A stretch of DNA of 64,000 nucleotides, from contig JAUCBJ010008603.1 in assembly GCA_032718475.1 (NCBI GenBank), forward strand, positions 1-64,000, written 5' to 3'. Both the position numbers and the translations under genes were made by a program. The notes below the pieces were generated by a model. The model made no database searches. It was not told the DNA's origin and saw only the letters and a program-made list of their open reading frames with translations. Source of the stretch: Nemertoderma westbladi. Taxonomy: Eukaryota; Animalia; Xenacoelomorpha. This document shows, one piece after another, positions 37,201-64,000 of this stretch (its first letter is position 1; each line of letters starts with the position of its first letter).

Positions 37201-39257
37201 CAAACTTACTTGTGTACCGTTGCGTTACGAAACTTACTTGAGTACTGTAACCAAACTTACTTGTGTACCGTAACCAAACTTACTTGTGCACCGTAACCAA
37301 ACTTACTTGTGCACTGTAACCAAACTTACTTGTGCACCGTAACCAAACTTACTTGTGAACCGTTACCAAACTTACTTGTGCACCGTAACCAAACTTACTT
37401 GTGTACCATTACCAAACTTACTTGTGCACCGTTACCAAACTTACTTGTGTACCGTTACCAAACTTACTTGTGCACCGTTACCAAACTTACTTGTGCACCG
37501 TTACCAAACTTACTTGCGTACCGTTACCAAACTTACTTGTGTACCAAAACCAAACTTACTTGTGTACCGTTGCGTTACCAAACGTACTTGTGTACCGTAA
37601 CCAAACTTACTTGTGCACCGTAACCAAACTTACTTGTGAACCGTTACCAAACTTACTTGTATACCGTAACCAAACTTACTTGTGTACCATTACCAAACGT
37701 ACTCGTGTACCATAACCAAACTTACTTGTGTACCGTAACCAAACTTACTTGTGTACCGTAACCAAACTTACTTGTGTACTGTAACCAAACTTACTTGTGT
37801 ACCGTAACCAAACTTACTTGTGCACCGTAACCAAACTTACTTGTGAACCGTTACCAAACTTACTTGTGTACCGTAACCAAACTTACTTGTGCACCGTAAC
37901 CAAACTTACTTGTGAACCGTTACCAAACTTACTTGTGCACCGTAACCAAACTTACTTGTGTACCATTACCAAACTTACTTGTGCACCGTTACCAAACTTA
38001 CTTGTGTACCGTTACCAAACTTACTTGTGAACCGTTACCAAACTTACTTGTGTACCGTTGCGTTACGAAACTTACTTGTGCACTGTAACCAAACTTACTT
38101 GTGTACCGTTGCGTTACGAAACTTACTTGAGTACTGTAACCAAACTTACTTGTGTACCGTAACCAAACTTACTTGTGCACCGTAACCAAACTTACTTGTG
38201 CACCGTAACCAAACTTACTTGTGTACCATTACCAAACTTACTTGTGCACCGTTACCAAACTTACTTGTGTACCGTTACCAAACTTACTTGTGTACCGTTA
38301 CCAAACTTACTTGTGTACCGTAACCAAACTTACTTGTGCACCGTAACCAAACTTACTTGTGAACCGTTACCAAACTTACTTGTGCACCGTAACCAAACTT
38401 ACTTGTGCACTGTAACCAAACTTACTTGTGCACCGTAACCAAACTTACTTGTGAACCGTTACCAAACTTACTTGTGCACCGTAACCAAACTTACTTGTGT
38501 ACCATTACCAAACTTACTTGTGCACCGTTACCAAACTTACTTGTGTACCGTTACCAAACTTACTTGTGCACCGTTACCAAACTTACTTGTGCACCGTTAC
38601 CAAACTTACTTGCGTACCGTTACCAAACTTACTTGTGTACCAAAACCAAACTTACTTGTGTACCGTTGCGTTACCAAACGTACTTGTGTACCATAACCAA
38701 ACTTACTTGTGTACCGTTGCGTTACCAAACTTACTTGTGCACCGTTACCAAACTTACTTGTGTACCGTTACCAAACTTACTTGTGTACCAAAACCAAACT
38801 TACTTGTGTACCGTTGCGTTACCAAACGTACTTGTGTACCATAACCAAACTTACTTGTGTACCGTTGCGTTACCAAACTTACTTGTGCACCGTTACCAAA
38901 CTTACTTGCGTACCGTTACCAAACTTACTTGTGTACCAAAACCAAACTTACTTGTGTACCGTTGCGTTACCAAACGTACTTGTGTACCATAACCAAACTT
39001 ACTTGTGTACCGTTGCGTTACCAAACGTACTTGTGTACCATAACCAAACTTACTTGTGTACCGTTGCGTTACCAAACTTACTTGTGCACCGTTACCAAAC
39101 TTACTTGTGTACCGTTACCAAACTTACTTGTGTACCATAACCAAACTTACTTGTGTACCGTTGCGTTACCAAACTTACTTGTGCACCGTTACCAAACTTA
39201 CTTGTGCACCGTAACCAAACTTACTTGTGCACTGTAACCAAACTTACTTGTGTACCG
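28210..39257 (-). repeat. ~11-kb 23-bp minisatellite (~480 copies) filling ACE intron 4; unit copies the exon end plus donor
   Basis: Plus unit ACCGT(A/T)ACCAAACTTACTTGTG(T/C/A) equals minus ACGGTACACAA|GTAAGTTTGGT(T/A); exon 4 ends ..ACGGTACACAA|gtaagt. Confidence 0.98.
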
Positions 39258-39468
39258 TGTAGCCTTGCTTTACTAGTTCGTCTGTAACATCTATTTCCGC
39301 GGCATCGGGATATGGTTTAACGATGTCCATTATCCCCCACTGTTGGGCCCACAAGTTGCCGAGTAGATGTGCCGGTATGAGGCCGTCATCCCCAATATTG
39401 GTGCAGCCGGAATCGTCACCAAAGTTGTTGTCCTCTTTGAGTTTACGTCGAACATACGCATGGAGTTG
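39248..39468 (-). CDS. ACE: ACE-like exon 4
   Basis: gtttag|QLHAYVRRKL..GLIPAHLLGNLWAQQW..KPYPD..DVTDELVKQGYTVH AA|gtaagt. Confidence 0.95.
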
Positions 39469-39496
39469 CTAAACGGTATGAAAAAGAAGAGATTTC

Positions 39497-40884
39497 GCTA
39501 CAATGGTTTCACTTGTTCCCATAAACATACCTGGTACAATGGTTTCACTTGTTCCCATAAACATACCTGGTACAATGGTTTCACTTGTTCCCATAAACAT
39601 ACCTGGTACAATGGTTTCACTTGTTCCCATAAACATACCTGGTACAATGGTTTCACTTGTTCCCATAAACATACCTGGTACAATGGTTTCACTTGTACCC
39701 ATAAACATACCTGGTATAATGGTTTCACTTGTTCCCATAAACATACCTGGTACAATGGTTTCACTTGTTCCCATAAACATACCTGGTACAATGGTTTCAC
39801 TTGTTCCCAAACATACCTGGTACAATGGTTTCGCTTGTTCCCATAAACATACCTGGTACAATGGTTTCACTTGTTCCCATAAACATACCTGGTACAATGG
39901 TTTCACTTGTACCCATAAACATACCTGGTACAATGGTTTCACTTGTTCCCATAAACATACCTGGTACAATGGTTTTACTTGTTCCCATAAACATACCTGG
40001 TACAATGGTTTCACTTGTACCCATAAACATACCTGGTACAATGGTTTCACTTGTTCCCAAACATACCTGGTACAATGGTTTCGCTTGTTCCCATAAACAT
40101 ACCTGGTACAATGGTTTCACTTGTTCCCATAAACATACCTGGTACAATGGTTTCACTTGTACCCATAAACATACCTGGTACAATGGTTTCACTTGTTCCC
40201 ATAAACATACCTGGTACAATGGTTTCACTTGTTCCCATAAACATACCTGGTACAATGGTTTCACTTGTACCCATAAACATACCTGGTACAATGGTTTTTC
40301 ACTTGTTCCCATAAACATACCTGGTACAATGGTTTCACTTGTTCCCATAAACATACCTGGTACAATGGTTTCACTTGTTCCCATAAACATACCTGGTACA
40401 ATGGTTTCACTTGTTACCATAAACATACCTGGTACAATGGTTTCACTTGTTCCCAAACATACCTGGTACATTGGTTTCACTTGTTCCCATAAACATACCT
40501 GGTACAATGGTTTCACTTGTTACCAAACATACCTGGTACAATGGTTTCACTTGTTCCCATAAACATACCTGGTACAATGGTTTCACTTGTTCCCATAAAC
40601 ATACCTGGTACAATGGTTTCACTTGTTCCCAAACATACCTGGTACAATGGTTTCGCTTGTTCCCATAAACATACCTGGTACAATGGTTTCACTTGTACCC
40701 ATAAACATACCTGGTACAATGGTTTCACTTGTACCCATAAACATACCTGGTACAATGGTTTCACTTGTACCCATAAACATACCTACCTGGTACAATGGTT
40801 TCACTTGTACCCATAAACATACCTGGTACAATGGTTTCACTTGTTCCCATAAACATACCTGGTACAATGGTTTTACTTGTTTCC
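39497..40884 (-). repeat. 36-bp minisatellite (~38 copies) filling ACE intron 3; unit copies the exon end plus donor
   Basis: Minus unit GGGAACAAGTGAAACCATTGTACCAG|GTATGTTTAT versus exon 3 end GGAAACAAGTAAAACCATTGTACCAG|gtatgt. Confidence 0.97.
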
Positions 40885-41010
40885 ATATATCCTCCACCAT
40901 TTCTTTCAGATTATCAACCTCGTAAACCCCTCGCCATACTTCCGACGCATCTGTGTAGTTTTGTGACGTAGCTCCTTTATTGCTTAGAGCTACCGACTCT
41001 ACATATAAGT
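40859..41010 (-). CDS. ACE: ACE-like exon 3
   Basis: atttag|(D)LYVESVALSNKGA..YTDASEVWRGVYE..VEDIWKQVKPLYQ|gtatgt. Confidence 0.92.
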
Positions 41011-45886: not shown

Positions 45887-48430
45887 ACAAATACATGGAC
45901 TGTAGTGAAATAAAGGAACAAATACATGGACTGTAGTGAAATAAAGGAACAAATACATGGACTGTAGTGAAATAAAGGAACAAATACATGGACTGTAGGG
46001 AAATAAAGGAACAAAGACATGGACTGTAGGGAAATAAAGGAACAAATACATGGACTGTAGGGAAATAAAGGAACAAATACATGGACTGTAGTGAAATAAA
46101 GGAACAAATACATGGACTGTAGGGAAATAAAGGAACAAATACATGGACTGTAGTGAAATAAAGGAACAAATACATGGACTGTAGTGAAATAAAGGAACAA
46201 ATACATGGACTGTAGTGAAATAAAGGAACAAATACATGGACTGTAGTGAAATAAAGGAACAAATACATGGACTGTAGTGAAATAAAGGAACAAATACATG
46301 GACTGTAGGGAAATAAAGGAACAAATACATGGACTGTAGGGAAATAAAGGAACAAATACATGGACTGTAGTGAAATAAAGGAACAAATACATGGACTGTA
46401 GTGAAATAAAGGAACAAATACATGGACTGTAGGGAAATAAAGGAACAAATACATGGACTGTAGTGAAATAAAGGAACAAATACATGGACTGTAGGGAAAT
46501 AAAGGAACAAATACATGGACTGTAGGGAAATAAAGGAACAAATACATGGACTGTAGTGAAATAAAGGAACAAATACATGGACTGTAGTGAAATAAAGGAA
46601 CAAATACATGGACTGTAGTGAAATAAAGGAACAAATACATGGACTGTAGGGAAATAAAGGAACAAATACATGGACTGTAGTGAAATAAAGGAACAAATAC
46701 ATGGACTGTAGGGAAATAAAGGAACAAATACATGGACTGTAGTGAAATAAAGGAACAAATACATGGACTGTAGTGGAAATAAAGGAACAAATACATGGAC
46801 TGTAGTGAAATAAAGGAACAAATACATGGACTGTAGTGAAATAAAGGAACAAATACATGGACTGTAGTGAAATAAAGGAACAAATACATGGACTGTAGTG
46901 AAATAAAGGAACAAATACATGGACTGTAGTGAAATAAAGGAACAAATACATGGACTGTAGTGAAATAAAGGAACAAATACATGGACTGTAGTGAAATAAA
47001 GGAACAAATACATGGACTGTAGTGAAATAAAGGAACAAATACATGGACTGTAGTGAAATAAAGGAACAAATACATGGACTGTAGTGAAATAAAGGAACAA
47101 ATACATGGACTGTAGGGAAATAAAGGAACAAATACATGGACTGTAGTGAAATAAAGGAACAAATACATGGACTGTAGGGAAATAAAGGAACAAATACATG
47201 GACTGTAGTGAAATAAAGGAACAAATACATGGACTGTAGTGAAATAAAGGAACAAATACATGGACTGTAGTGAAATAAAGGAACAAATACATGGACTGTA
47301 GTGAAATAAAGGAACAAATACATGGACTGTAGTGAAATAAAGGAACAAATACATGGACTGTAGTGAAATAAAGGAACAAATACATGGACTGTAGTGAAAT
47401 AAAGGAACAAATACATGGACTGTAGTGAAATAAAGGAACAAATACATGGACTGTAGTGAAATAAAGGAACAAATACATGGACTGTAGTGAAATAAAGGAA
47501 CAAATACATGGACTGTAGTGAAATAAAGGAACAAATACATGGACTGTAGTGAAATAAAGGAACAAATACATGGACTGTAGTGAAATAAAGGAACAAATAC
47601 ATGGACTGTAGTGAAATAAAGGAACAAATACATGGACTGTAGTGAAATAAAGGAACAAATACATGGACTGTAGTGAAATAAAGGAACAAATACATGGACT
47701 GTAGTGAAATAAAGGAACAAATACATGGACTGTAGTGAAATAAAGGAACAAATACATGGACTGTAGTGAAATAAAGGAACAAATACATGGACTGTAGGGA
47801 AATAAAGGAACAAATACATGGACTGTAGTGAAATAAAGGAACAAATACATGGACTGTAGTGAAATAAAGGAACAAATACATGGACTGTAGTGAAATAAAG
47901 GAACAAATACATGGACTGTAGTGAAATAAAGGAACAAATACATGGACTGTAGGGAAATAAAGGAACAAATACATGGACTGTAGTGAAATAAAGGAACAAA
48001 TACATGGACTGTAGTGAAATAAAGGAACAAATACATGGACTGTAGTGAAATAAAGGAACAAATACATGGACTGTAGGGAAATAAAGGAACAAATACATGG
48101 ACTGTAGGGAAATAAAGGAACAAATACATGGACTGTAGTGAAATAAAGGAACAAATACATGGACTGTAGTGAAATAAAGGAACAAATACATGGACTGTAG
48201 TGAAATAAAGGAACAAATACATGGACTGTAGGGAAATAAAGGAACAAATACATGGACTGTAGTGAAATAAAGGAACAAATACATGGACTGTAGTGAAATA
48301 AAGGAACAAATACATGGACTGTAGGGAAATAAAGGAACAAATACATGGACTGTAGTGAAATAAAGGAACAAATACATGGACTGTAGTGAAATAAAGGAAC
48401 AAATACATGGACTGTAGTGAAATAAAGGAA
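45887..48430. repeat. Highly homogeneous 31-bp minisatellite, ~82 copies
   Basis: Unit ACAAATACATGGACTGTAG(T/G)GAAATAAAGGA; essentially two variants. Confidence 0.98.
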
Positions 48431-48928: not shown

Positions 48929-49467
48929 TGTTAGCTTATTCAATCCCGCCAACACCCCATAAAGTTGTAAGCCGATAAGCAATATTGGGAGCCACGAGAT
49001 TGGGCAATTAACCAACTCGTGCCATCCCAATAAGAGTGGGAAGGAAGCACACAATAGAGGGTCAGGGGCCAAACCCCTAACCCAGAGAGAACAGGTGGAG
49101 TGAACGGGAATACTCCACGGGGCGCCAACAAGGGTATTAACCAATCAGAGGGGGGGAATGGCATCGATTGAGTAGCAGTAAGGCCACCGTGCAATATAAC
49201 CAATAACCTATTAATCAGTGATTCAGTTATCTCAGTGCACCAGTGCTAGCGTAGGGTACAGCCAATTAGTTTAGTTAGGGGATCACGGGACTTTAGTTAC
49301 CGTATCCCGCCTACCGTATAATTCACAATATATCTATATCCTATAACCTATTATTATACACCGAACTTCAGAACTCAGTTATCTTTATTTCACTCTTATA
49401 CACGGCGGGGACGCGTGGACTAAATACCACATCGGATAAATCGGGATCCCTCCTGGATCCCGTCACA
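48929..49467 (+). repeat. 5' LTR
   Basis: TGTTAGCTTATTCAATCC..GGATCCCGTCACA; by eye ~9 substitutions plus 1 indel versus the 3' LTR. Confidence 0.95.
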
Positions 49468-49547
49468 GTAACTAAAGACGAGCTGCCGCCCCAGTTAAAC
49501 ACAAAGAACTCCACCCTAGCTAGCCGAACCATCAGCCACCAGACGAG

Positions 49548-52500
49548 ATGAGTGAGTCGGGCGAGACACCACCGCGGACCCCGGACGAAGACCTAACGAT
49601 CCGCGAGGCCGCGACCAAACGATACAGGCCCACGACGCCGGAGCCATCGATAACGGGCGAACCGGAAGCACAGGACGAGGAGGGCCTGGAACCCGAAGTC
49701 GAGCCAAGAGAGAAAGAGAGCGAGACGGAGGGAGAAGGAGATGAGTCAACACGGGACGGAGGACGGCGCGCCGATGTCGCCGGCCAGCTACCGGCCGAGG
49801 GCGACGAGCGGCCCACCGAACCGGTGGGGCCGACGGTGCGACGCCGGACGCGAAGAGATGGAGGAGAGATTGGTACCGATGTCGCCGGCCAGCTACAGGC
49901 CGAGGGCGACGGACGGCCCACCGGAACGGCGACGGTGGAGCCGCCGGTACGACGTCGGACCCAGAGGGACGGAGGAGAGGTCGGCGACGAGGACGTCGGG
50001 GTTTCTGAGCGACTTCGACGGGCCTACAACGCGACCCGGAAGCTGATAAACGACGCCAAGAAGGAAGGGGCGAAGGTAGACGAGGTGAGACTGAGAAAGC
50101 GACTAGGTGAGTCGGATAGACACTTAAATTACCTGATACGTTTTGGGCAGAGAGAACTAGCCGGGGAGAGAGCAAAGGGAATTGCAGGCGAACTGTTTGA
50201 ACTATGGGAGTGTGGGTGTATGGGACCTAGCATAGCGTCAGTGTACATAGGGCCATACTTAATCGATGCCCGGGGAGTAAAACCGGTGGGTTGGAGGGGA
50301 CTCGAAGGGGGCGAATCCGAGGTTAACACCGAGGATTCGGCCTCGTCGGTCGGAGAAAGCTCCGGGAAGCGGGGGAAAGTTAGTAGGTCGGGAAGGCGGG
50401 GGAAGTCCGTCGTAACCGATAAGTCTGTTACATCCTCCGCGAAAGAAAGAGCGGTGAGGAAAATAGGAGCCGCATACCGTCTCAGCATGGCAGAGCAAGG
50501 TCAGAGAGAAATGAAGGAACGGCTAGAGGAGGGAAGAGTGCGGTTAGAGAGGGAAACGGTATTGCTTAGAGAAACCGGAGAAAGGGCCGAAAGGGCTTTG
50601 AAAAGCCTAAGGGAGTATGATGAGATAGAGGAAAGGGAGTGTAGGGAGCGTGAAGCGAGAGAGGAAAGGGAACGCAGAGAGCGTGAGGCAAGGGAGGACG
50701 AGGAACGCAAGGAACGTGAGGCAAAAGGGGAAGAGGAACGCAAGGAACGTGAGGCAAAAAGGGAAAAGGAACGCAAGGAATATGAGACGAGAAAGGAAAA
50801 GGAACGCAAAGAGCGTGAGGCGAGACGAAGGGAGAGCATTAAGAGTGCCGCAGACTCGGCCATCAAGGACACCCAGGAGCGTGAGGGGAAAATGGCAGAG
50901 AGTGAAAAAGAGCGCAAGGAATTAGAGAAACGGCAGAGTGAGTTTGCGGGAAATATAATTAGAGGGGAGCACGAGTTGGAATACGTGCGAGCGACGCCGT
51001 CTGAAACCGGGGCCGGCTCGAGTATTTTTGAGGAGCCGAGGGCCGTAGATATATTTATTAATACTCCACTGACAGGGACCGCACGACAGACCCAAAACTG
51101 GTGCGACCGTACGGGCGGGGGGGGGTAATAATAATGGTACAGTAGACGTTGTTGATATTAATAGTACCGTATGGGATAACGCTAATCAAACCTTTATTAC
51201 AGGAAATACTTTGCCTAGTGGTAGTAATTTAAATTTAAATCAGAACAATCCCAGTGTTAATGTAGAAAATAATCCTAATATTGATGTAGTTACGCAAAAT
51301 AATTCAAATAATCAAAATAATAACTCGAATTCGGACCTACAAAATAACTTAAATAACGCAATTACACAGAATAATTCGAATAATTCAAATAATGATCTTA
51401 GCCCGAGTTTACAAAATAATTCAGATAACGTAGTCGCGCAGAATAATACAAATGATTTTGTTTCAAATGAGCAAATTAATTCCGTTTCCAATATGGGTGC
51501 TATTAATGTAAACACGTCGGGCCTACGTAACCAGGGAGCAGAGGGCCTGGTAGGCCACGTAGTTAGTAGACAGGGAGCAGAGGGCCTGGTAGGCCACGTA
51601 GTTAGTAGACAGGGAGCAGAGGGCCTGGTAGGCCACGTAGTTAGTAGACAGGGAGCAGAGGGCCTGGTAGGCCGCGTGGTTGGTAGGCAGGGAGTAGAGG
51701 GCCTGGAAGGCCACGCAATAGCAGAGGGAGAGGCGGGGGTGAACAGACCCGACTGTGGTAGGGTTGATCTGTCGACTAGAGAGATATATAGTGGCGGGGC
51801 GAGAGGTAGCGAAGTAGAATGTAGCGGGTGGGGGGGGGGCTACAAGGGCCCCACAACAGAGAGTTAGCGGCGAGAGGGGGGGGGGCAGAGAGTGTCCCAC
51901 AGCCGTCAGCGGACAATGCGAGGGCCGAACAAGGTAAACCGCAACAACCGGCGACGGAAAGTAATAGGGGGATTGCGAGTATCCCCAGCGACGTGCGATC
52001 GAGCAGAGAAAGGCAGGTTGACGTCGCGGGAGGGCAGACGGAGCGTCGAGCCCGATCAGAGGAGGAAAGAAGAACAGTGGGGTTTAACCGGGAGGTCGAC
52101 GAGAGATCTCGTGAGCGGGAATACTCCACTGATAGGAGAAGAGAGGAAGACAGTAGTAGAAGTATCGCCGCAAACGATAGAAGAGCGAGGACGGACAGCG
52201 AGCCGTCGGTAGTCGAGATGAGAACGGAGAGTCAGTGGGGTCGGACTCCGGGAGATTGCCGTCGCCCCGGAGGGATGCGATCCGGTGAGACGCATTACAC
52301 GCCGAGAGAGGGGTACGCGATGTACCGGTACGAAGATGAAAACAGTGGAGAGGGGGGTCGAAGAGAAACTTTCCGACGGAATATACCTACCGATCGAGAA
52401 TACGGTAGCCGCGGGGAGGATTATTCGAGAAGAATAAACTTCAATCCCGAGCAACACATGCAGACTGTAGGGCATACTGTAGGTCTTACTGCACATACCG

Positions 52501-52826
52501 TAGGCCATACTGAGAGAGGCAATGTAGGCGATAGGATAGCGCGGACAACGGGATTAAACCCGGAAGTCGCGGAATACATACCGGCGAGTAGGCCAGAAGC
52601 TGATAGGCCTATACCGGTACCAGCACAGCAGTATGACTACAGCATGCAGGGACATAACATATACCCAGGGGAGGGGGGAATTATTGCGGATAGGTGTATG
52701 GGCCCCAACATATTAACATCAACCCCAGTACCAGACATACCGGTGGGGGGGGGGGACAGGGTGACATTCCCCCATCACAATATCAACAATATACCCCGAC
52801 AGGAACAAGAACAACGAGACCCCTAG
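49548..52826 (+). CDS. Long low-complexity 5' coding region of the BEL element (ORFs 49548-51128, ~51124-51867, 51828-52826), probably the N-terminal extension of gag-pol broken at G homopolymers
   Basis: Three overlapping open frames (E/R coiled-coil, Asn-rich, 13-aa repeats); each frame switch coincides with a G9-G11 run. Confidence 0.55.
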
Positions 52827-55800
52827 ATGAAAACAGGTCGTGTGATACAGACATATGGAGGGGGCCGCTACCCCCGATGACATATCCGAGTCAGAGAAGA
52901 TCAAGAAATAGGACGGACGAACCGCACCAGACAGGGGAAACTATACAGCACCCGTCGAATCCATTAGAAGCGCAGGCAATGGGGATGGCCACGTTGATCG
53001 ATGCGTTGAAAACGAGGATCGAATTACCACCCGTGGAACCGTTCAAATTCGATGGGAGCAGGCCGGAAGAATACTTACAGTTTCGGCGAATGTATAGTAA
53101 CGAAATACTAACAAAAAACTTGACGCAGGCGGAGTGCCTAAAGTATCTACAAGTATACACGGGAGGCCCAGCATACGACATCGTGAGGCAATATCAGGGA
53201 ATAGAGGGCGGCTTCACGACAGCATGGCGGGCACTGGATAGGGAATACGGGCACCCGGCCAAGATCATCAGGCAAACGCTGAGAGGCATAACATCGGGTG
53301 GCCTACAGGATAATCCCGTTAGCATTAAGACGTTTGCTAACAAAGTCGAGAAGGCGCTGATCGTGCTGAAGACGCTAGACGCGCCATACGAGCTCAACGC
53401 GTCCAATAACATCACCACGATAGCGCAGGCACTACCGAGCTGGCTGCGCAACAAATGGAGGAAGATCGCTTTCTCCACCCGAGACAAGAAGGGTGCGGAA
53501 CCAGGTTTAGAAGAAATGTCAAACTTCTTAAATTACGAGGCTGAACTAATAACTGACCCAGTCTATAGCGAAGACAGCCTGGGAAAGGGACCAAAGACAG
53601 ACTACCATAGACCAAAGCCAGAGCACAACACATCGAACGCATTACCGAGACTCAGGCAATCATTGCCGTATGCAGCGACGCAGGGGACTGCAAGTCCACA
53701 GACAAACGAAGATAAGACAACATCAAGGGACGGACAGGGGAACAATAACAACATGAATAAACATAACCCCAGTACGTCCAGTAGGCCAAACCCAGTCAAT
53801 AAGAATAGTAGGGACTTTGGTACGAATATAACTGCGATACGCAATGCATTGTATAAAGAGGGCTACGACCCAAAGAGCAAATGCCAGTTACACGCAAATG
53901 CGCTTCATAAAACTATGAATTGCAGGTACTGGCAGGCGCTACCGAGGCAAGACCAGATAGATTACGCGTCGAGCAATAAAATCTGCTCGCGATGTGTGAA
54001 GAGTGGACACAAGGCCAGGGAATGCCAAGAGAAGCCGGTCAAGTTTGGCCAAAGGAGAGGCCAGACGATGGCAACGAGCACAGTAGGGGCGAAGAAGAGA
54101 GGAACAGTGCTACTTGGAGTAGTACCAGTACGAGTGATCGGGGAAGGCAATCGATCAGTAACAACACTAATGCTGGTTGATAGTGGAGCTGCCTTCACAT
54201 TAGTTGAGGAATGGGTAGCCGAAGAAATAGGGTTGAGAACGAGGCCAAGCAGGATGGCGGTGACAACCATCTCTAGCAAAGACGAGATCCTAGAGATGAG
54301 GACAGGACGGTGCGCAATTGCAGCAGTGGCACCAGGATGCGATTATGGGGCAACCATCGACCCCATCCAAGTAATAGAGTCAATTAACATCAATGCCAGG
54401 CGGCCAACCAACATCGAGGTCGAGCAATACAAATTCCTGGACAACATTGACTTCTCAATCCCAGACGTGGACGTTGGGAAGGTATCCATCATAGTAGGCA
54501 TGGACTGCCCAACGGCCCACGAGAGAATGCAAACGGTCTTCGGCGAAGACAAGCAGAGCGACCCGGTGGCCATATTAACGCCATTCGGGTGGACGCTGAG
54601 TGGTCCAATTAAGAGCAAGATACCATTCAGGATGTCGGAGACATCAGGATGCATGTTCGCGGGAACAATGCAGGAAATGGGTGACGAGGGAGCAGAGGAG
54701 CAGCTTAAAAGACTGCTCAGACAAGACTTCGAGGGACTGAAAGAGACCGGGGTCGGGACCTCGGTAGAAGACAAGCAGGCTCTACAAAGTGTGGAGGAAT
54801 CGATGACGTGTGATGAGGGGCGGTATACAATAGGAATGGTATGGAAACTACCGAAGATACCGCTACCCGATAATAGAGGGATGGTACTCACGAGACTCCG
54901 CAAGCTGAAACAAACACTACAACGGAGCCCCGAGAAGAACGAGTACATTCACAAAACGATCAAGAAGTACGTCGAGAAGGGATGGGCCGTGGAGTTACCG
55001 GTCGACGAACCGAACACGGACAGGACATACTACCTGCCACTCCACGTAGCTTTAGACCCAAAGAAAGGTAAACTTAGGATGGTAGTCGATGCATCGGCAA
55101 AGACCGACGGAAAGTGCTTAAACGATTACCTACTAGAGGGCCCAAACATATACAATTCGGGCATAGAAGTACTACTTAGATTTAGGAATGGGAAACACGC
55201 CTTCACGTGTGACATAGAAGGCATGTTCAACCAAGTCCGAGTAACAGAGGAAGATAGCGATAGTCAACGCTTCTTATGGTATAACGGCGAAGAAGAACCG
55301 CCTATAATACCGGCATATAAGATGGTAGTACAAAACATGGGGGCCAAGTCGTCCTCATTTACGACGACTATGGCAGTGAGAGACACGGTAAAAGGGAAGG
55401 AAGATAGATATAGCAGTAGGGCCGTCGATATGATCAGACGCGGCTTCTACGTAGACGACGGTATGGAGTCTGGAAATACGGTTGAGGAGATACTGGAAAC
55501 AGGGCGCGAGGTTCGCGACATCCTGAAAGGATCCGGCTTCAACCTGACCAAATTCCAATCCAGTTCAGAAGAATTCATCAAGGAAATAGAAGACAAGAAA
55601 CCAGAATCGACCATGGACAACCCTACAACAGCCAAAGGACAGGACATGGCGATTAAGAGAACGGAATCCCAGCAGAAGGCATTGGGAATCGTGTGGGATA
55701 GGAAAACAGACGAACTGAAGTATCAGCTGAGCCAGGAGGGCGCGGACACCCATACGAAGAGGGGTTATGTATCGTATATAGCAAGGATATACGATCCCCT

Positions 55801-58084
55801 AGGCCTAGCATCCCCACTACTAATCACGGGGAAACAGATACTCAAGAGAGTATATAAATTGAAGGATGAGTGGGATGTAGAGGTACCAGAGGACATCAAG
55901 AAACAGTGGAGCAAATGGACAGGGGACTTGGAGAGGATGGGAACATACAACATGCCGCGAGTGTATTTTCCGGACGGGAACATGACGAGTCTGGACTTAC
56001 ATATGTTCTCCGACGCGTCGTTAGAGGCATACGGAGCGGCACTCTATTTGGTACAGCGGGAGGGGCCTCACAAGCCCAGACTAGCCTTTAGCAAAGCTAA
56101 GTCAACGCCGCCAGATTCAGCATCTGTTCCCAAGCTAGAATTGACAGCTGCGAGACTAGGAGTTAGAGCCACAGCCTACCTAGTGGATACAATTCCCAAC
56201 ATAGTGGAGACACACTACTGGACGGACTCCATGGTAGTGCTTGGTTGGCTACACAACGAAAAGACGAGATACCCGATATTCGTCGCGAATAGAGTGGACG
56301 AAATAAGGGCGAGCACAGAACTGGAAAGGTGGCACTACTGCCCAACAGATGAGAACCCAGCGGACTTGCTGTCGAGGGGCGTGGAACGCCACACTTTCCT
56401 GAAGAAGGAAGTATTGTGGCAACATGGGCCACAATTTCTGAGCGATAGAGAGGCCTGGCCGCCGATGAAGAAGGTGGACCCGGGCTCGGAACCAGTATCA
56501 GAAGGAGAGGGAGATTCAGAGGGAGAAGAGATATACTCCCAGATGGTGAGGGAGATTAGGGACGTGCAACCAGGAAGGGAACTGTGCGATAACCCGACGG
56601 ATAAACTCCTCAGCTACAGTTCTAGTTGGTATAAGACCAAGAAACTAGTGGCGTACTGGAGAGCCTTTGGGAATTTCCTTGCGGGAGTCGGCAAGGACAA
56701 GAAGACCAGGACAACCATAGATCTGGAAGGAGCGGCCAAGGCAGTGATCCGCTATGAACAACGCAAGAACTACGGCGACGAGGTGGAACGTGTCGGTAAC
56801 CAACAGCACCTCCGACGGGATAGCGAGTTGATCACGCTGTCGCCACAACTCAACAAGGATGGGATCCTAGTAATGAATTCTAGGGTGGGATATAACAACA
56901 GTATAGTCGTGCCACCGAAACCCATCATCATTCCCACAGGATCGCCTATAGTCCACCAGATCATATGGGACTCCCACAAATCGATACTGCATGGGGGCAC
57001 CAACCGAACCCTCACAGAGATAAGAAGGACCTATTGGGTCAAACAATTAAGGAAAAAGGTGAAAGCGGTAGTGGGGCAGTGCCAGACCTGCCGACGAGCG
57101 AAGAAGGAGCGAGCCGTACAGGAGATGGCGCCACTACCGGCGAGTAGGGTAAGACAGCACGACCCGCCATTTACGCATTGCGGTGTGGACATGTTCGGGC
57201 CGATAAAGATCAAAGTGATGCGACACACGGAGAAACGTTACGGCATTATCTTCGTATGCAACAATACGCGGGCGGTGGGGATAGAACTCGCCCAAGATGC
57301 AACCGCATCAGCGTTCATTAACGCCTTAGAAAGGTTTAGGGACCGCAAGGGTGGGACGATCGCAGTGATATACAGCGACAACGGCACCAACTTTGTGGGC
57401 GCAGAGAGTGAGATGGCAGAGGCCTTGGACATCTTAGAAGGAGAAGAAGTCAGGGCGGCCATGAGAAGACGACAAGTAAAGTGGGAGAGAAGGACGCCGT
57501 ATGCACCACATACACTAGGATGCGTCGAGAGATTGGTGGGCAGTTCAAAGCGTCTAATGACGAAGTTAATGAACACCCACATGGTCACTGAGGACGTTTT
57601 ACGAACAGTACTTGCGAAGTGCGAGGGGATCATTAATAGCAGACCGCTATATCCGGAGAATGATGACCCTGAGTCATTAGACGTGTTGACGCCTAGCCAT
57701 TTTCTAATGGAAAGGCCAGCGACCATCGATATGCGGGGTGTAGACCCAGATGACATACATTCCCGCCAGAGTTGGAAAGTCGCTAAAGCAATAAGCGCAG
57801 AGTATTGGAGGAGGTGGGTAGAAGAATACCTACCCACGCTCCATAAGCGAAGCAAGTGGAGGAAGCCAAACAGGGAGTTAAGAGAGGGAGATCTCGTAAT
57901 CGTCACGGATGATACTATCATCAACAACCAATGGCGGTTGGCGAGAGTTGTAGGCACCTACTCCAACGAGGACGGAAGAGTCCGATCGGTAGAAGTGCGG
58001 ATAGGTGGAAAGATAGGTGCGAAGGACAGAAAAACCTACAGGAGAGCGGTAGGTAAATGCTGTCTCTTAGAAGGAGCACCTTAG
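52694..58084 (+). CDS. BEL/Pao gag-pol polyprotein
   Basis: Gag-like PFKFDG..YLQF, CSRC..H..C knuckle; protease LVDSGA; RT DIEGMFNQV..YVDDG; RNase H HMFSDAS..WTDS..NPADLLSRG; integrase H..H..CQTC, GVDMFGP, SDNGTNF, VERLV; C-terminal W..EYLPTL..GDLV..W.LARV domain. Confidence 0.97.
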   Translation: MYGPQHININPSTRHTGGGGGQGDIPPSQYQQYTPTGTRTTRPLDENRSCDTDIWRGPLPPMTYPSQRRSRNRTDEPHQTGETIQHPSNPLEAQAMGMATLIDALKTRIELPPVEPFKFDGSRPEEYLQFRRMYSNEILTKNLTQAECLKYLQVYTGGPAYDIVRQYQGIEGGFTTAWRALDREYGHPAKIIRQTLRGITSGGLQDNPVSIKTFANKVEKALIVLKTLDAPYELNASNNITTIAQALPSWLRNKWRKIAFSTRDKKGAEPGLEEMSNFLNYEAELITDPVYSEDSLGKGPKTDYHRPKPEHNTSNALPRLRQSLPYAATQGTASPQTNEDKTTSRDGQGNNNNMNKHNPSTSSRPNPVNKNSRDFGTNITAIRNALYKEGYDPKSKCQLHANALHKTMNCRYWQALPRQDQIDYASSNKICSRCVKSGHKARECQEKPVKFGQRRGQTMATSTVGAKKRGTVLLGVVPVRVIGEGNRSVTTLMLVDSGAAFTLVEEWVAEEIGLRTRPSRMAVTTISSKDEILEMRTGRCAIAAVAPGCDYGATIDPIQVIESININARRPTNIEVEQYKFLDNIDFSIPDVDVGKVSIIVGMDCPTAHERMQTVFGEDKQSDPVAILTPFGWTLSGPIKSKIPFRMSETSGCMFAGTMQEMGDEGAEEQLKRLLRQDFEGLKETGVGTSVEDKQALQSVEESMTCDEGRYTIGMVWKLPKIPLPDNRGMVLTRLRKLKQTLQRSPEKNEYIHKTIKKYVEKGWAVELPVDEPNTDRTYYLPLHVALDPKKGKLRMVVDASAKTDGKCLNDYLLEGPNIYNSGIEVLLRFRNGKHAFTCDIEGMFNQVRVTEEDSDSQRFLWYNGEEEPPIIPAYKMVVQNMGAKSSSFTTTMAVRDTVKGKEDRYSSRAVDMIRRGFYVDDGMESGNTVEEILETGREVRDILKGSGFNLTKFQSSSEEFIKEIEDKKPESTMDNPTTAKGQDMAIKRTESQQKALGIVWDRKTDELKYQLSQEGADTHTKRGYVSYIARIYDPLGLASPLLITGKQILKRVYKLKDEWDVEVPEDIKKQWSKWTGDLERMGTYNMPRVYFPDGNMTSLDLHMFSDASLEAYGAALYLVQREGPHKPRLAFSKAKSTPPDSASVPKLELTAARLGVRATAYLVDTIPNIVETHYWTDSMVVLGWLHNEKTRYPIFVANRVDEIRASTELERWHYCPTDENPADLLSRGVERHTFLKKEVLWQHGPQFLSDREAWPPMKKVDPGSEPVSEGEGDSEGEEIYSQMVREIRDVQPGRELCDNPTDKLLSYSSSWYKTKKLVAYWRAFGNFLAGVGKDKKTRTTIDLEGAAKAVIRYEQRKNYGDEVERVGNQQHLRRDSELITLSPQLNKDGILVMNSRVGYNNSIVVPPKPIIIPTGSPIVHQIIWDSHKSILHGGTNRTLTEIRRTYWVKQLRKKVKAVVGQCQTCRRAKKERAVQEMAPLPASRVRQHDPPFTHCGVDMFGPIKIKVMRHTEKRYGIIFVCNNTRAVGIELAQDATASAFINALERFRDRKGGTIAVIYSDNGTNFVGAESEMAEALDILEGEEVRAAMRRRQVKWERRTPYAPHTLGCVERLVGSSKRLMTKLMNTHMVTEDVLRTVLAKCEGIINSRPLYPENDDPESLDVLTPSHFLMERPATIDMRGVDPDDIHSRQSWKVAKAISAEYWRRWVEEYLPTLHKRSKWRKPNRELREGDLVIVTDDTIINNQWRLARVVGTYSNEDGRVRSVEVRIGGKIGAKDRKTYRRAVGKCCLLEGAP

Positions 58085-58197
58085 AGCGGAGTTAGAGTGG
58101 AGTTTAGTCGTCCAAGTTTTGGACTGAGGGGGGTGGGATTGAGGGCGAGACGCCCTTCCCACACAAATAAAAATAAAATAAAATAAAAAAAATAATA

Positions 58198-59112
58198 GTT
58201 AATTAGTTAGTAGGTACGTAGTACCTAGAGTTAGTTAGTTAGTAGGTACGTAGTGCCTAGAGTTAGTTAGTTAGTAGGTACGTAGTGCCTAGAGTTAGTT
58301 AGTCAGTAGGTACGTAGTACCTAGAGTTAGTTAGTTAGTAGGTACGTAGTGCCTAGAGTTAGTTAGTTAGTAGGTACGTAGTACCTAGAGTTAGAGAGTT
58401 AGTAGGTACGTAGTACCTAGAGTTAGTTAGTTAGTAGGTACGTAGTACCTAGAGTTAGAGGGTTAGTAGGTACGTAGTACCTAGAGTTAGTTAGTTAGTA
58501 GGTACGTAGTACCTAGAGTTAGAGGGTTAGTAGGTACGTAGTACCGATAGTTAGAGAGTTAGTAGGTACGTAGTACCTAGTTAGAGTTAGAGTTAGAGGG
58601 TACGTAGTACCGATAGTTAGAGAGTTAGTAGGTACGTAGTACCAATAGTTAGTTAGTTAGAGGGTACGTAGTACCGATAGTTAGAGAGTTAGTAGGTACG
58701 TAGTACCTAGTTAGAGTTAGAGTCAGAGGGTACGTAGTACCGATAGTTAGAGAGTTAGTAGGTGCGTAGTACCTAGTTAGAGTTAGAGTTAGAGGGTACG
58801 TAGTACCGATAGTTAGAGAGTTAGAGGGTACGTAGTACCAATAGTTAGTTAGAGTTAGAGGGTACGTAGTACCGATAGTTAGAGAGTTAGTAGGTACGTA
58901 GTACCTAGTTAGAGTTAGAGTTAGAGGGTACGTAGTACCAATAGTTAGTTAGTTAGAGGGTACGTAGTACCGATAGTTAGAGAGTTAGTAGGTACGTAGT
59001 ACCTAGTTAGAGTTAGAGTTAGAGGGTACGTAGTACCAATAGTTAGTTAGAGTTAGTAGGTACGTAGTACCTAGTTAGAGTTAGAGTTAGTAGGTACGTA
59101 GTACCATTAGTT
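58198..59112 (+). repeat. Internal ~36-42-bp tandem array of TAGGTAC-GTA-GTACCTA hairpin units within the retrotransposon
   Basis: About 24 copies of GGTACGTAGTACC separated by (GTTA/GAGTTA)n spacers. Confidence 0.92.
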
Positions 59113-59617
59113 AGAGAGAGAGAGTGAGAGATAAAAGGGGTAAATAGGATATAGATATTAGTTAGCAGTAAGCAGAGTTAGTAGCGAGAGGGGGGCATAT
59201 GAGTACAGCTGGATAAATCGTGTGGCCACACGACGCATACTGCTGTACTGCATAGGCCCACTGAGTAGGCCAGAATATGGATCAGAGAGAGAATAGAATA
59301 AATCCATAGGCAGTAGTAAGTAGTAGGACAGTAGAATCAAAGCAAAATAAATAAATAAATAGAATAGGGCAAAAATCGGAAAATAGTGGTAACACAAGGA
59401 AAGTCGTTCTAGAACATAATAAAAGTAACGGACAGAAATTGTAAATTAGGCTGATTTACTAGCTCCGAAATTAATTAGATTAAATTAAGCTTGAAAGGCG
59501 CAGTTAAGTAGAAAAGTAGGCCATTATCGAACTGTACGAAACATCTTAATACATCACTCATCTGTATTGCGCCTTGGTAAGGCACCACTCTACAGGTGAG
59601 CGAGTGTAGTGTTCGGA

Positions 59618-62152
59618 ATGGCAAGTAAGCTGATCAGGAAGAGAAAGGCGGAGTCAGGAGGAAAAGAAATATTGGTGGATTTCACCGAAAGACACCCAGA
59701 GGAGAAGACGAGAGGATACTACGAGAGGTTGGAAAGGGGTCACGCGGCACGAGCGCTGCAGGATCACTTCCGGGAGGCGCACGAACAGCGGTTGGTCGGG
59801 ACCTACGGGACGCCGTCGCTGGACAACGCGATCTTCCAACACTTCCACTACGTGGTGAAAGGAGACGAGGCGAAGTTCGGGATTCCGAAGTATCCGAGGG
59901 AATCGCCGAGGAAGGACTGGAAAAGATTCATAGAGTCCGTCAACAGAGGAGGATATATGATCCTAGATGACGAGGGAACCGTGGAAGACGAAGCGGGTTC
60001 GAGACGAGGAACGGCAGGGTCGGCCAGGACCATACTCCTACATTTGGCCGCGCCAAATGGGGACATCTTCTTATTCGATTTAGGGACGTATGGGAAGAAG
60101 GACGGGCCGAAATTAGACCGATTGCCGAAAGCGGTACAAGTCTTAGTAAGAGAGAAGTCGACGACGAAAGTGGGATCGGCGATTCGCGAGGACGCGGAGA
60201 GGATCATCGGTCCGGACGCCACCAACCTCCTGGATATGCAGAAAGTCTTTATGGCTATGACGGCACCGGATGGATTGGGGGTGGTCGAAAACACAGGCCA
60301 ATGCGGGGCGGTGGCGATGGGCCAATTATTGGGGCTCGTATGCCACAAACCGATGGACTGGGGAAAGTTTAGGGAAGAATACGGAGCAGAACTGGCGAAC
60401 TCGCTGAAGTGGGGAGCGAGACCGGGAAAGCAGGAGGTATATCAGTTTCGCAGAGGAGCGATAAAGGTATATCAGAAGCGATATATCCTGCAGGAGGACT
60501 GGATGATGATAAGTTTGCTTAACTTATTCATGACCGTAGTCATCGAGAGGGAACCAGGAGCATTTCTGTTATCGGGATCACCCCTAAGCTACAGGAGAGC
60601 CTTTAAAGTGGCCTTTGACGGTCTGGTAGACCACCCGGGGCTGAAGGGCGAGTCGGTGTACTACAACAGCCGACATCTGGTAGACGGGGAGACAGATACA
60701 CCGTATCAGAGATGGGAGCAGCTAGAGGCGGACAGACGAGAAGCAAAGCGACTGGAAGAAGTCGCTAGACGGGAGAGGATAGAAGCAGAGGAGAGGGAAG
60801 AGGAGGCCAGGGCACAGAGTTACGGCTTCGAGGAACAGGCGGGCCTAGACGAACTTCATTGGACTTCGTCAGGGAGTTCGGGGGAGTCTCTAGGGCGAGA
60901 ATTGGGATGGACGGTGGGATCGCCGAAACAGTCGACGTCGGGGTTGCAAACGATGCCCATACCAGTGGGCGCCGAGGGCGACCAACCGCCAAGGAAGTTA
61001 AGGGAGCTAGAGGGATGGAGAGCTACGGGCGAGAGTCAAGGCGGGAAGGGACATAGTGGATCCATCGGGATACCGGGATTGGAGACACTACCAGAAGAGG
61101 AGGACGGCGACGACGAGTTCGGAGAGATCCCGGCCATCGAGAGGATAGGCCACTCGGACACGGACTGGGTTGGCGGAAGGGTGGTGACAGCCAGTGGGGC
61201 GAGGGCCTTCTGGAACAGATCCGGCAAGCGGACCTGGGTGCACGAGGAGCCGGCGATGGATTTCGCGGGGAGCACCATCAGGTTGGGCGAGCAACCGGGG
61301 ACGGCACCACGGATAGTATTCGGGGAGACGATGCCCGAAAGGGGCGGAGAGATAGACGTAAACAGGGAGAGCAACGTAGAGAAGTTCACCTACCAGCGAC
61401 TCCATAGACCGCGGAGATCGCTTGGGACGAAAGACGAGGTGGGACGGGAGACATTGGTACTCGGCTGCGACTACTGTGGGAGACAGACCCATCGGGAAAG
61501 CAGCTGCCTATACCGGTTCCAACGGGGAACCTTTTGTCTCTATTGTAGAGAACCAAGTCACAGGATGGGGGCGTGTCCACGGTTGCATAACCGATGTCCA
61601 AAGTGCCACTTTCGGGGACACTACGGACGCGAGTGCGACTGGATGAGCGACGAGGAGAAGTTCACGAGGTTCGAGGAGTGGGCCGACGTCGGGGCCATGA
61701 CGCGCCAGCGCATGAAGGCCCAAGAGTTCAAGTGGGGTTTCTTCCTCATAAACCAGGAGACCCACATGGAAATCATAAAGCGAAGGTTACCGTTTACCTA
61801 TCAAGAGGTAGCTACGGCGGCATCGTTCGCCGGAGTTATGAACACGCAACGGTACCTGGACAGGTGGACACCAGAGAACCGGAGGGAGTTTAGGGATTTC
61901 TTGGCGGAACACGTACCAAAGGCAATGAAAATGATCCTATGGGACGCCACACGAGGGAGACAACCAGGCCATTCTGAGGGGCCACCGGCGAAGCGGTATC
62001 GGGCTTTAATAACACCAGCGCCCAAGGAGCCGACGACCGGGATCAGCAAGGAAGTGGCAGCGAAGGTCCGGAAGCAGAAAGCGGATGATGCCAGAGGAGC
62101 GGTGATAACCAAGAAACGGGCCAGGGAAGAGGACGTGAGGAGGAACAGATAA
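59618..62152 (+). CDS. Extra retrotransposon ORF (~844 aa): putative DEDDy 3'-5' exonuclease domain + coiled-coil/disordered linker + three CCHC zinc knuckles
   Basis: Intact 2.5-kb ORF between pol and the 3' LTR. ExoI-like ILDDEG, LLHLA..IFLFDL, LP..V..LV....KVGSAIRED, LLDMQ, ExoIII-like QKRYILQED; knuckles CDYC..H..C, CLYC..H..C, CPKC..H..C. Confidence 0.75.
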   Translation: MASKLIRKRKAESGGKEILVDFTERHPEEKTRGYYERLERGHAARALQDHFREAHEQRLVGTYGTPSLDNAIFQHFHYVVKGDEAKFGIPKYPRESPRKDWKRFIESVNRGGYMILDDEGTVEDEAGSRRGTAGSARTILLHLAAPNGDIFLFDLGTYGKKDGPKLDRLPKAVQVLVREKSTTKVGSAIREDAERIIGPDATNLLDMQKVFMAMTAPDGLGVVENTGQCGAVAMGQLLGLVCHKPMDWGKFREEYGAELANSLKWGARPGKQEVYQFRRGAIKVYQKRYILQEDWMMISLLNLFMTVVIEREPGAFLLSGSPLSYRRAFKVAFDGLVDHPGLKGESVYYNSRHLVDGETDTPYQRWEQLEADRREAKRLEEVARRERIEAEEREEEARAQSYGFEEQAGLDELHWTSSGSSGESLGRELGWTVGSPKQSTSGLQTMPIPVGAEGDQPPRKLRELEGWRATGESQGGKGHSGSIGIPGLETLPEEEDGDDEFGEIPAIERIGHSDTDWVGGRVVTASGARAFWNRSGKRTWVHEEPAMDFAGSTIRLGEQPGTAPRIVFGETMPERGGEIDVNRESNVEKFTYQRLHRPRRSLGTKDEVGRETLVLGCDYCGRQTHRESSCLYRFQRGTFCLYCREPSHRMGACPRLHNRCPKCHFRGHYGRECDWMSDEEKFTRFEEWADVGAMTRQRMKAQEFKWGFFLINQETHMEIIKRRLPFTYQEVATAASFAGVMNTQRYLDRWTPENRREFRDFLAEHVPKAMKMILWDATRGRQPGHSEGPPAKRYRALITPAPKEPTTGISKEVAAKVRKQKADDARGAVITKKRAREEDVRRNR

Positions 62153-62864
62153 GTTCCCGGAGACGAGGGAATGAGACTGAGACTGGGAAGTGGTGCGCCT
62201 GGAAGGCGCCGCATGTAACGTACGAACTATTAAGTATAAATTTAATTAATGCAAATAACTATATAAGTGCAATTTGTATGTACGTACGTAGTGATTAGCA
62301 GTAAAATACATACGTTTGGAGTAAGTACTATAGTCATACAACCTTTCTCAATTAGCTACTGGGACTGGGGGACAACTGACTATGGCACTATGGACGAGAC
62401 AACTGACAATTTCACGCTTCTTGAGTGCGACGGCACGAGAGGGGGGGGGGGAGGGGGTTCGTCAGGAGAGATAAAACAGTCAAAGTGGAGTTGAGAATCG
62501 GAATAAGAGTGCGAAGTGCGGAGAGAGTGCGAACGCAATTCTAGTGTGGGGGGGGAGAATAAGAGGCTGAGTGAGGGACGAGGAGGTCCGGGGGTATGAG
62601 AGAGTTAGGGTGAGAGTGAAGGTGAGATAGGGCGAAAATGTTGGGGAAACAAAAATCGCGTGAAGAGGTGAGCGCGATCGGCCCGACATGAGACGCCAGG
62701 CACACAGGGTAGCGTTATCATACCCAGAGGGAGCGGCCTGGAAAGCCGACTCCGAGAGAAAAGATTTCCACCCCACACCCGATGCTAGATCGGGATCCAG
62801 CGGGATTGTAACGCACTTTTTGGTTGATGCTATCTTCTTACCGGGAAGATAGCATGGGGGGGAG

Positions 62865-63402
62865 TGTTAGCTTATTCAATCCCGCCAACACCCCATAAAG
62901 TTATAAGCCGATAAGCAATATTGGGAGCCACGAGATTGGGCAATTAACCAACTCGTGCCATCCCAATAAGAGTGGGAAGGAAGCACATAATAGAGGGTCA
63001 GGGGCCAAACCCCTAACCCAAGGAGAGCAGGTGGAGTGAACGGGAATACTCCACGGGGCGCCAACAAGGATATTAACCAATCAGAGGGGGGAATGGCATC
63101 GATTGAGTAGCAGTAAGGCCACCGTGCAATATAACCAATAACCTATTAATCAGTGATTCAGTTATCTCAGTGCAGCAGTGCTAGCGTAGGGTACAGTCAA
63201 TTAGTTTAGTTAGGGGATCACGGGACTTTAGTTACCGTATCCCGCCTACCGTATAATTCACAATATATCTATATCCTATAACCTATTATTATACACCGAA
63301 CTTCAGAACTCAGTTATCTTTATTTCACTCTTATACACGGCGGGGACGCGTGGACTAAATCCCACATCGGATAAATCGGGATCCCTCCTGGATCCCGTCA
63401 CA
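62865..63402 (+). repeat. 3' LTR
   Basis: Direct repeat of 48929-49467, preceded by the PPT. Confidence 0.95.
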
Positions 63403-64000
63403 GGAGTGGACCAAAAAACGGGTTAGCTAGCAGTTGAAGCAGGACTTACCTATTAGTGAGTGGACCAACAAACGGGTTAGCTAGTAGTTGAATCAGGACT
63501 TACCTATTAGTGAGTGGGAGTGGACCAAAAACGGGTTAGCTAGCAGTTGAAGCAGGACTTACCTATTAGTGAGTGGACCAACAAACGGGTTAGCTAGCAG
63601 TTGAACCAGGACTTACCTATTAGTGAGTAGGAGTGGACCAACAAACTGGTTAGCTAGTAGTTGAACCAGGACTTACCTGTTAGTGAGTGGACCAACAATC
63701 GGTTTAGCTAGCAGTTGAACCAGGACTTACCTATTAGTGAGTGGCCCAACAAACGGGTTAGCTAACAGTTGAACCAGGACTTACCTGTTAGTGAGTGGAC
63801 CAACAAACGGGTTAGCTAGCAGTTGAATCTGGACTTACCTATTAGTTAGTGGGAGTGGACCAACAAACGGGTTAGCTAGTAGTTGAACCAGGACTTACCT
63901 GTTAGTGAGTGAATCAGGAAACGGGTTAGCTAGCAGTTGAACCAGGACTTACCTATTAGTGAGTGGACCAACAACCGGGTTACCTAGCAGTTGAACCAGG
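63403..64000 (-). repeat. 54/60-bp minisatellite running off the window; minus strand carries TAG|GTAAGT
   Basis: Unit GAGTGGACCAACAAACGGGTTAGCTAGCAGTTGAACCAGGACTTACCTATTAGT. Confidence 0.93.

Follow-up and report, generated by a model that had tools for sequence, protein, structure and literature searches.

A third gene with a predicted DEDDy exonuclease fold and three zinc knuckles in a lineage of BEL/Pao LTR retrotransposons

The element and its third gene

The window analysed here is a stretch of 64,000 nucleotides from a Nemertoderma westbladi contig. It contains an LTR retrotransposon that carries an additional open reading frame, ORF3, between pol and the 3' LTR. The features of the element are:

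48929..49467, + strand: 5' LTR with TG...CA ends, matching the 3' LTR at 98.1% identity over 540 nt
49548..51128, + strand: 526-aa ORF opening the gag region; the frame breaks after it, near G runs
52877..58084, + strand: BEL/Pao gag-pol ORF with gag core, CCHC, PR, RT, RNase H region and IN
58197..59105, no strand assigned: 32-bp tandem repeat of 27.9 copies, inside the 1.5-kb pol-ORF3 spacer
59588..59601, + strand: candidate splice site ahead of ORF3, resembling both an acceptor and a donor, from sequence only
59618..62152, + strand: ORF3, 844 aa, with predicted DEDDy-fold domain, linker, three CCHC knuckles and helical tail
62856..62864, + strand: polypurine tract adjoining the 3' LTR
62865..63402, + strand: 3' LTR with TG...CA ends and a 54-bp satellite directly after it

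By its LTR pair, its polypurine tract and its pol profiles, the element is a BEL/Pao LTR retrotransposon (Belpaoviridae). The gag-pol ORF matches the Pfam profiles PF03564, PF13650, PF00078, PF05380 (5.5e-40), PF17921, PF00665 and PF18701; its domains are in gag-PR-RT-RH-IN order and the profiles PF05380, PF18701 and PF03564 are Pao-specific. All of the best 120 database relatives of this pol have PF05380, at identities of 34-40%. The 526-aa ORF has no Pfam match. Neither a target-site duplication at the LTR flanks nor a TGG-type tRNA primer-binding site after the 5' LTR was found in this copy. These two absences make the copy atypical rather than non-BEL, since the superfamily is defined by pol.

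ORF3 is an intact sense frame within the LTR pair and downstream of pol, as the original prediction described it, with no stop across 59618-62152. The same prediction held that it has neither signal peptide nor transmembrane segment. A simple hydropathy scan agrees: the maximum over 19 residues is 1.3 and the N-terminus reaches no more than -0.43. There was also no envelope protein among the matches listed from viral and PDB fold searches. On the hydropathy scan, ORF3 lacks the signal peptide and the transmembrane anchor of an env-like protein.

A predicted nuclease fold joined to zinc knuckles

Within ORF3 the following parts can be distinguished:

59810..60568, + strand: predicted DEDDy-type 3'-5' exonuclease domain, aa 65-317, by profile, conservation and structural match
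59966 (D117), 59972 (E119), 60191 (D192), 60482 (Y289) and 60494 (E293), + strand: catalytic-type residues
60833..61447, + strand: predicted disordered linker, aa 406-610, pLDDT <50
61466..61636, + strand: three C-x2-C-x4-H-x4-C zinc knuckles, aa 617-673
61649..61897, + strand: conserved helical tail, aa 678-760, with the pattern FE..A..G..T..R...WGF and pLDDT of about 80-95

As a lone query ORF3 had no Pfam match at E<=1 and no PDB-sequence match at E<=10, and a word-based protein search found nothing, either with ORF3 or with the family alignment A1. A single-sequence AlphaFold model was discarded at a pLDDT of 31. At E<=0.001 an exhaustive protein search returned 75 proteins, 73 of them via the knuckle region; P0044 and P0058 were excluded as unrelated before profiles were built. 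Because these relatives were chosen by their C-termini, their N-termini are an independent test of the exonuclease domain. A profile of the relatives' N-terminal domains, with the query left out, gives ORF3 100 bits over aa 65-317, against a maximum of 2.6 bits among 500 shuffles.

The ExoI-like D and E and the ExoII-like D lie exactly at the predicted positions, and these acidic residues are kept in the family: D117 and E119 are each present in 16 of 21 relatives and D192 in 14, with Y289 in 20. The ExoIII-like motif that had been proposed reads Y289-x3-E293, so its fourth acid is Glu and not Asp. At position 293 the 21 relatives have D in 10 cases and E in 8, and the Y-x3-E form is common to the nearest domains, P0005, P0009 and P0006. 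The window's domain, an intact one, groups with P0005 and P0009 (support 0.91). Having Glu as the fourth acid makes the activity of this copy uncertain.

The family profile A1, of 31 sequences, matches EXD2 (1.2e-11), Egalitarian (1.2e-4) and WRN (7.3e-4), while PF01612 is touched by 4 of the 31 members, at best 6.2e-5, below the cut-off. An AlphaFold model resting on only these 31 sequences has an ordered exonuclease domain, an ordered knuckle-tail region and a disordered linker. Residues 56-349 of the model match Nibbler with Z 14.6, an rmsd of 3.9 and 205 aligned residues, followed by a second Nibbler EXO row (14.4), WRN (13.3), RNase D (12.8) and Exd1 (12.1), where rows within 1 Z unit were treated as tied. 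The top Foldseek ranks are T. brucei RNase D, Egalitarian, Nibbler and EXD2, and giant-virus 3'-5' exonucleases are among the matches to viral models. Pfam does not recognise ORF3 alone, whereas Foldseek and structural comparison give the DnaQ-like fold, of WRN/EXD/Nibbler type, that had been anticipated. The N-terminal domain is predicted to have a DEDDy fold, on the strength of the profile match to EXD2 and the model's match to Nibbler. The nearest cellular subfamily is EXD2 by profile and Nibbler by structure, with a margin of about 1 Z unit. Nibbler outscores WRN, diDNase and RNase D by no more than about 1 Z unit, so the fold picks no pathway.

The three knuckles reported earlier are confirmed at 61466-61507, 61535-61576 and 61595-61636. 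Their ligands are invariant at 11 of 12 positions among 31 family members, and it is via the knuckles that the family profile matches those of Lin28 and of nucleocapsid proteins. In the 31-member alignment, the knuckles and the tail are better conserved than the active site. The helical tail is a conserved region without a family name, and the whole protein belongs to an unnamed family that is invisible to Pfam as a single sequence. An unnamed protein family and a conserved post-knuckle domain are thereby defined.

Occurrence, inheritance and selection in the family

A DNA motif made from the knuckles alone was scanned in metagenomes and identified at least 120 loci, 80 of them flanked. Loci L081-L120 (40 of the 120 listed), with about 300 bases of flank each, are excluded from all counts. 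There were no matches to the motif in viral contigs, and the match at L071, in a bacterial contig, is due to chance. Among the at least 120 loci, the exonuclease domain is upstream of the knuckles in 59 of the 80 flanked loci, and in 42 of the 80 it is accompanied by an upstream BEL integrase on the same strand. Where the matches listed have at least 3.5 kb upstream, the BEL integrase is just before the exonuclease in 28 of 29, the exception being L012. Exonuclease and knuckles share one open frame in 33 of 42 loci among the matches listed, and the complete pol ORFs of listed loci all score PF05380, BEL/Pao (22 of 22). At L023 an LTR pair encloses the whole element including ORF3. At L047 and L059, ORF3 has the knuckles but no detectable exonuclease domain. 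One contig-name series accounts for 67 of the 80 flanked loci and, among the 42 linked loci, for 39 (the others are L010, L044 and L079), so the loci may represent few host species.

The family is also abundant and diverse in the host. In one sequencing run (X1), 1347 contigs align to 561 bp. Across the host runs the summed depth of ORF3, which is not a copy number, is of the same order as that of pol, and contigs covering ORF3 range from 99% to under 90% identity alike. None of the three outcomes that would have undone the original prediction came about: a DnaQ-like fold is predicted, the acidic residues are conserved, and instead of being a one-off insertion ORF3 is present across host copies and distant relatives and is tied to the BEL integrase. 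The proposal of a captured nuclease holds in that a DEDDy-fold gene occupies the env position, but the capture is old and lineage-wide rather than this element's own. ORF3 is a standing, family-wide, selected part of the element.

The route of expression may differ among members. In the window's element, stops within the 1.5 kb between pol and ORF3 preclude a Pol fusion, and the protein would be made from a separate transcript, either spliced or started internally. The sequence CTCTACAG, earlier put forward as a splice acceptor, does end at 59595; GTGAG directly after CTCTACAG makes the candidate site equally donor-like. Among the matches listed, ORF3 is in frame with pol behind a single TGA in 12 of 42 relatives, as TGA-C in 10 of these 12. 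Some relatives may make ORF3 as a stop-readthrough extension of Pol. The readthrough linkers are poorly conserved (pN/pS 0.64-0.81) and these loci are mutually related.

The trees of ORF3 and pol were compared for 24 elements, namely 23 loci and the window, with L047 and L059 omitted because they have no exonuclease match. Of 21 splits, 13 are common to the RT-RNase H and ORF3 trees. The distances in ORF3 and pol are correlated with a Mantel rho of 0.88, and none of 5000 permutations was as high. The splits that are not shared are mostly weak, and there are two supported conflicts (L002; L031/L069). The shared splits and the Mantel result together indicate that ORF3 has long been co-inherited with pol. 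Pol proteins of the lineage are about 30-35% identical to that of the window's element. In a wider pol tree without an outgroup the 25 locus pols group with a support of 0.989; the window's pol is on a long branch between them and the best 120 database matches in this unrooted tree.

Selection was assessed across host copies and relatives, a check that the original prediction had called for. There are 63 variants in the exonuclease region among host copies, and of the 40 best supported, a choice that favours common variants, 34 are synonymous, against a synonymous expectation of 34% for transitions (p 4e-11). None of these best 40 of the 63 variants falls in a catalytic codon. Both this excess and the low dN/dS values of relatives point to purifying selection.

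The catalytic residues are not kept throughout the family. Of 87 aligned domains, 69 have all motif columns; the four acids are kept in 41 of these and the Tyr also in 37. The D-x-E is gone from one clade (support 0.999) that comprises 20 of 73 domains, and the 11 members of this dead clade that have a full pol also form a clade in pol (support 99). The dN/dS of the dead clade's exonuclease domain is 0.04-0.53 (8 pairs), compared with 0.05-0.51 (10 pairs) for the intact type, by simple counting with dS near 1 and with 2 His-branch pairs saturated. The exonuclease domain of the dead clade remains under purifying selection. Since a clade without the catalytic residues is still selected, nuclease activity cannot be the whole function, and it is probably RNA binding, not cutting, that is the shared job.

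These results bear on whether ORF3 might be neutral cargo, a chance-captured host gene or a protein of envelope type. That ORF3 alone matches nothing in Pfam or PDB would be in keeping with this. The rotifer paper cited here as PMC5408684 is that of Rodriguez, Kenefick and Arkhipova 2017. In its available text, the DEDDy and GDSL ORF3s of rotifers show no significant departure from neutrality (PMC5408684). However, the absence of a hydrophobic segment, the purifying selection, the co-divergence with pol and the BEL integrase found at 28 of 29 loci all go against such an explanation, which is largely refuted and which we consider extremely improbable.

Possible function and relation to known systems

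We tentatively favour the reading that ORF3 is an accessory factor that works on RNA of the element itself, a proposal that we hold to be a little short of probable. ORF3 would be an old, vertically inherited accessory gene of the BEL/Pao lineage, in which single-stranded RNA would be held by the knuckles and the tail, and a structured RNA end by the exonuclease fold, much as Egalitarian and Exd1 use the fold for RNA binding. In the available part of one study, Egalitarian keeps the DEDDy residues and binds RNA signals, including that of the I factor, without needing catalysis (10.1101/2025.08.03.668247). The target could be the element's genomic RNA or its particle, which ORF3 may protect, transport, package or trim at its end. 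Because the fold, knuckles and tail are common to all members, RNA binding is likely to be the central role, with most of them also retaining trimming; 3'-end trimming is likely in the catalytically intact majority, which includes the window's element. Long co-inheritance with pol fits a benefit in cis and, together with the in-frame TGA-C link to pol, suggests work in cis on the RNA or the particle. Vertical inheritance and purifying selection would equally be seen if ORF3 suppressed silencing to the advantage of its own family. DEDDy folds also act on DNA, as in WRN and EXD2, which counts against a reading restricted to RNA.

Nibbler, Mut-7 and Exd1 operate in small-RNA pathways. It is conceivable, though in our view unlikely, that ORF3 counters silencing, a Nibbler/Mut-7-like enzyme over-trimming or degrading piRNAs or siRNAs and the dead clade serving as a binder or decoy. 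The top structural matches to Nibbler EXO, and that to Exd1, agree with this, as do the separate ORF3 of the window's element, which leaves it free to act in trans, and the abundance and diversity of the family in the host. That Nibbler, Mut-7 and Exd1 take part in small-RNA pathways is established knowledge and is discussed in the rotifer paper (PMC5408684). Against it stand the small edge of Nibbler over WRN, diDNase and RNase D and the fact that 12 of 42 relatives may fuse ORF3 to Pol, which points to the particle; moreover purifying selection alone was seen, without an arms-race signal, in the variant counts and pairwise dN/dS. We are similarly doubtful of its fuller form, in which an ancient, so far unrecognised BEL/Pao lineage carries a Nibbler-like trimmer with knuckles that suppresses piRNA silencing and one branch has become a dead RNA decoy made via Pol readthrough. 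If it were true, this would be a counter-defence enzyme of an animal LTR retrotransposon, with an active-versus-dead comparison at hand.

A helper of reverse transcription on the DNA side, proofreading or trimming cDNA 3' ends in the manner of DnaQ domains or nidovirus ExoN, seems to us distinctly unlikely. The fold is common to WRN and the exonucleases of family-A polymerases (Z 12-13.5), a Pol fusion is possible in relatives, and 3'-end processing has been proposed for the DEDDy domain of Dada DNA transposons in the available text of PMC3706591. However, a whole clade, with 11 loci supported in pol, replicates without the catalytic residues, and the knuckles and tail are conserved above the active site.

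The absent tRNA site raises another possibility, that the exonuclease makes a primer for reverse transcription by trimming the element's RNA back to a duplex between LTR and primer-binding site. Two further features are relevant:

49291..49300, + strand: 10 nt within the LTR, the exact complement of the 10 nt after the 5' LTR
49468..49477, + strand: primer-binding position, pairing with 49291-49300; possible self-priming

A complement of this length was matched in 3 of 3000 LTR shuffles. However, ordinary TGG-type tRNA sites are present, for example, in the relatives L013, L029, L036, L053 and L076, and also in L033, L060, L062 and L069. They occur alike in relatives with an intact and with a dead exonuclease, and primer-making is on this account rejected as a function of the family; we give the idea very little credence.

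The preferred reading, that of an accessory factor for the element's own RNA, can be set against what is known of third genes in mobile elements. The known extra genes of BEL/Pao elements are env-like, with Cer7, Tas and roo carrying membrane glycoproteins between pol and the 3' LTR. ORF3 has the same gene slot but encodes instead a protein of predicted nuclease fold with no hydrophobic segment. In animal LTR retrotransposons a third gene is as a rule assumed to be env, and here the gene is of a nuclease-fold type and likely RNA-binding.

DEDDy ORF3s are described in the available text of PMC5408684 from the Juno and Vesta LTR elements of bdelloid rotifers and from Athena/Terminon elements, with a proposed role in 3'-end processing or silencing and without clear selection. 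The reviews PMC6431247, PMC5718144 and PMC6338049 mention, in their available parts, the rotifer case only. As far as the available text and published descriptions of the ORFs allow comparison, the rotifer ORF3s resemble the one described here in being exonuclease ORFs after pol in the env position, with no transmembrane segment and with an altered acid pattern (PMC5408684). They differ in their carriers, which belong to the Juno, Vesta, TelKA and Mag clades rather than to BEL/Pao (PF05380), and in having a Cys-His-Cys motif in two families in place of three CCHC knuckles and a helical tail. The acids are DEED there and DEDE/DEDD here, and gain there was interpreted as recent and repeated without clear selection, in contrast to the co-divergence and purifying selection of the present family (PMC5408684). 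Both the presence of DEDDy ORF3s in LTR retrotransposons and the two functional guesses are therefore already known from the rotifer elements, on the available text of PMC5408684. New here are the BEL/Pao carrier, the triple-knuckle fusion, the deep co-inheritance with pol and the conserved dead clade. No BEL/Pao case of a DEDDy ORF3 was found among the openly accessible papers listed, and an earlier mention, for instance in Repbase reports or subscription journals, is possible. The intact and dead clades form a natural pair with which to ask whether such proteins cut RNA, carry RNA or blunt piRNA silencing.

Among cellular proteins, EXD2, Nibbler/Mut-7, WRN, Egalitarian and Exd1 have the same fold and the same order of ExoI D-x-E, ExoII D and ExoIII Y-x3-acid. 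ORF3 is at most 20% identical to these in the structural rows, and is distinguished by being intronless, LTR-borne and fused to knuckles. T. brucei RNase D (PDB 7c4c, 7c45), the best Foldseek match (6.2e-5), is a cellular protein with the exonuclease-plus-knuckle design of ORF3 at about 17% identity, and its CCHC region matches the family profile (2.6e-5). Its knuckles are near the nuclease, whereas ORF3 has a 300-aa linker and three knuckles, and the shared design is probably convergent. The Dada DNA transposons are also mobile elements with a DEDDy exonuclease, but there, in the available text, it is inserted in the DDE transposase (PMC3706591), while ORF3 is a separate retroelement ORF with knuckles.

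Genomic setting and primer position

The BEL/Pao element of the window is flanked by the 31-bp and 54-bp satellites, and it has no target-site duplication. The features of the surrounding sequence are as follows.

366-3848: host M1 aminopeptidase, two long ORFs (Pfam PF01433, PF17900, PF11838)
about 28450-41000: 23-bp satellite
45887-48430: 31-bp satellite
63404-64000: 54-bp satellite

This element has no tRNA-type primer site after its 5' LTR. The 10 nt directly 3' of the LTR (49468-49477) are exactly complementary to 49291-49300 within it, and a complement of this length arose in 3 of 3000 LTR shuffles. This pairing encloses a U5 hairpin (fold z -1.83) and resembles the self-priming of Tf1/Tj1 (PMC4600332). 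Judged by titles and abstract openings, no case of self-priming in a BEL element was found among the matching papers listed.

The gag-pol frame and its junction with ORF3

In the related elements gag and pol form one frame of 2100-2400 codons, whereas the 5' part of gag in the window (49548-52876) is broken into several frames, with the breaks close to G runs. These breaks may reflect either decay or sequencing error.

A single TGA separates pol from an in-frame ORF3, the exonuclease and zinc-knuckle ORF, in 12 related loci (L007, L021, L029, L031, L034, L039, L065, L066, L068, L069, L076, and L080), and in 10 of these it is directly followed by C. It is possible that this junction undergoes programmed readthrough, which would yield a Pol-exonuclease-knuckle fusion.

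Variation in ORF3

The ExoIII tyrosine is replaced by histidine (H-x3-D) in a divergent branch of the exonuclease domains (L010, L044, L077, and L079). The ORF3 of two other BEL elements (L047:3341-6529 and L059:6880-9648) has the knuckles and tail, with no exonuclease domain detected and no convincing Pfam match; its N-terminus is either a different module or a very divergent one. Among the host copies, contigs of sequencing runs X1 and X3 include a variant without window positions 61630-62175, a skip that leaves a minority of copies without the ORF3 tail. In L005, L043, L051, and L015, ORF3 extends to 1300-1600 codons, with 500-950 low-complexity residues upstream of the exonuclease.
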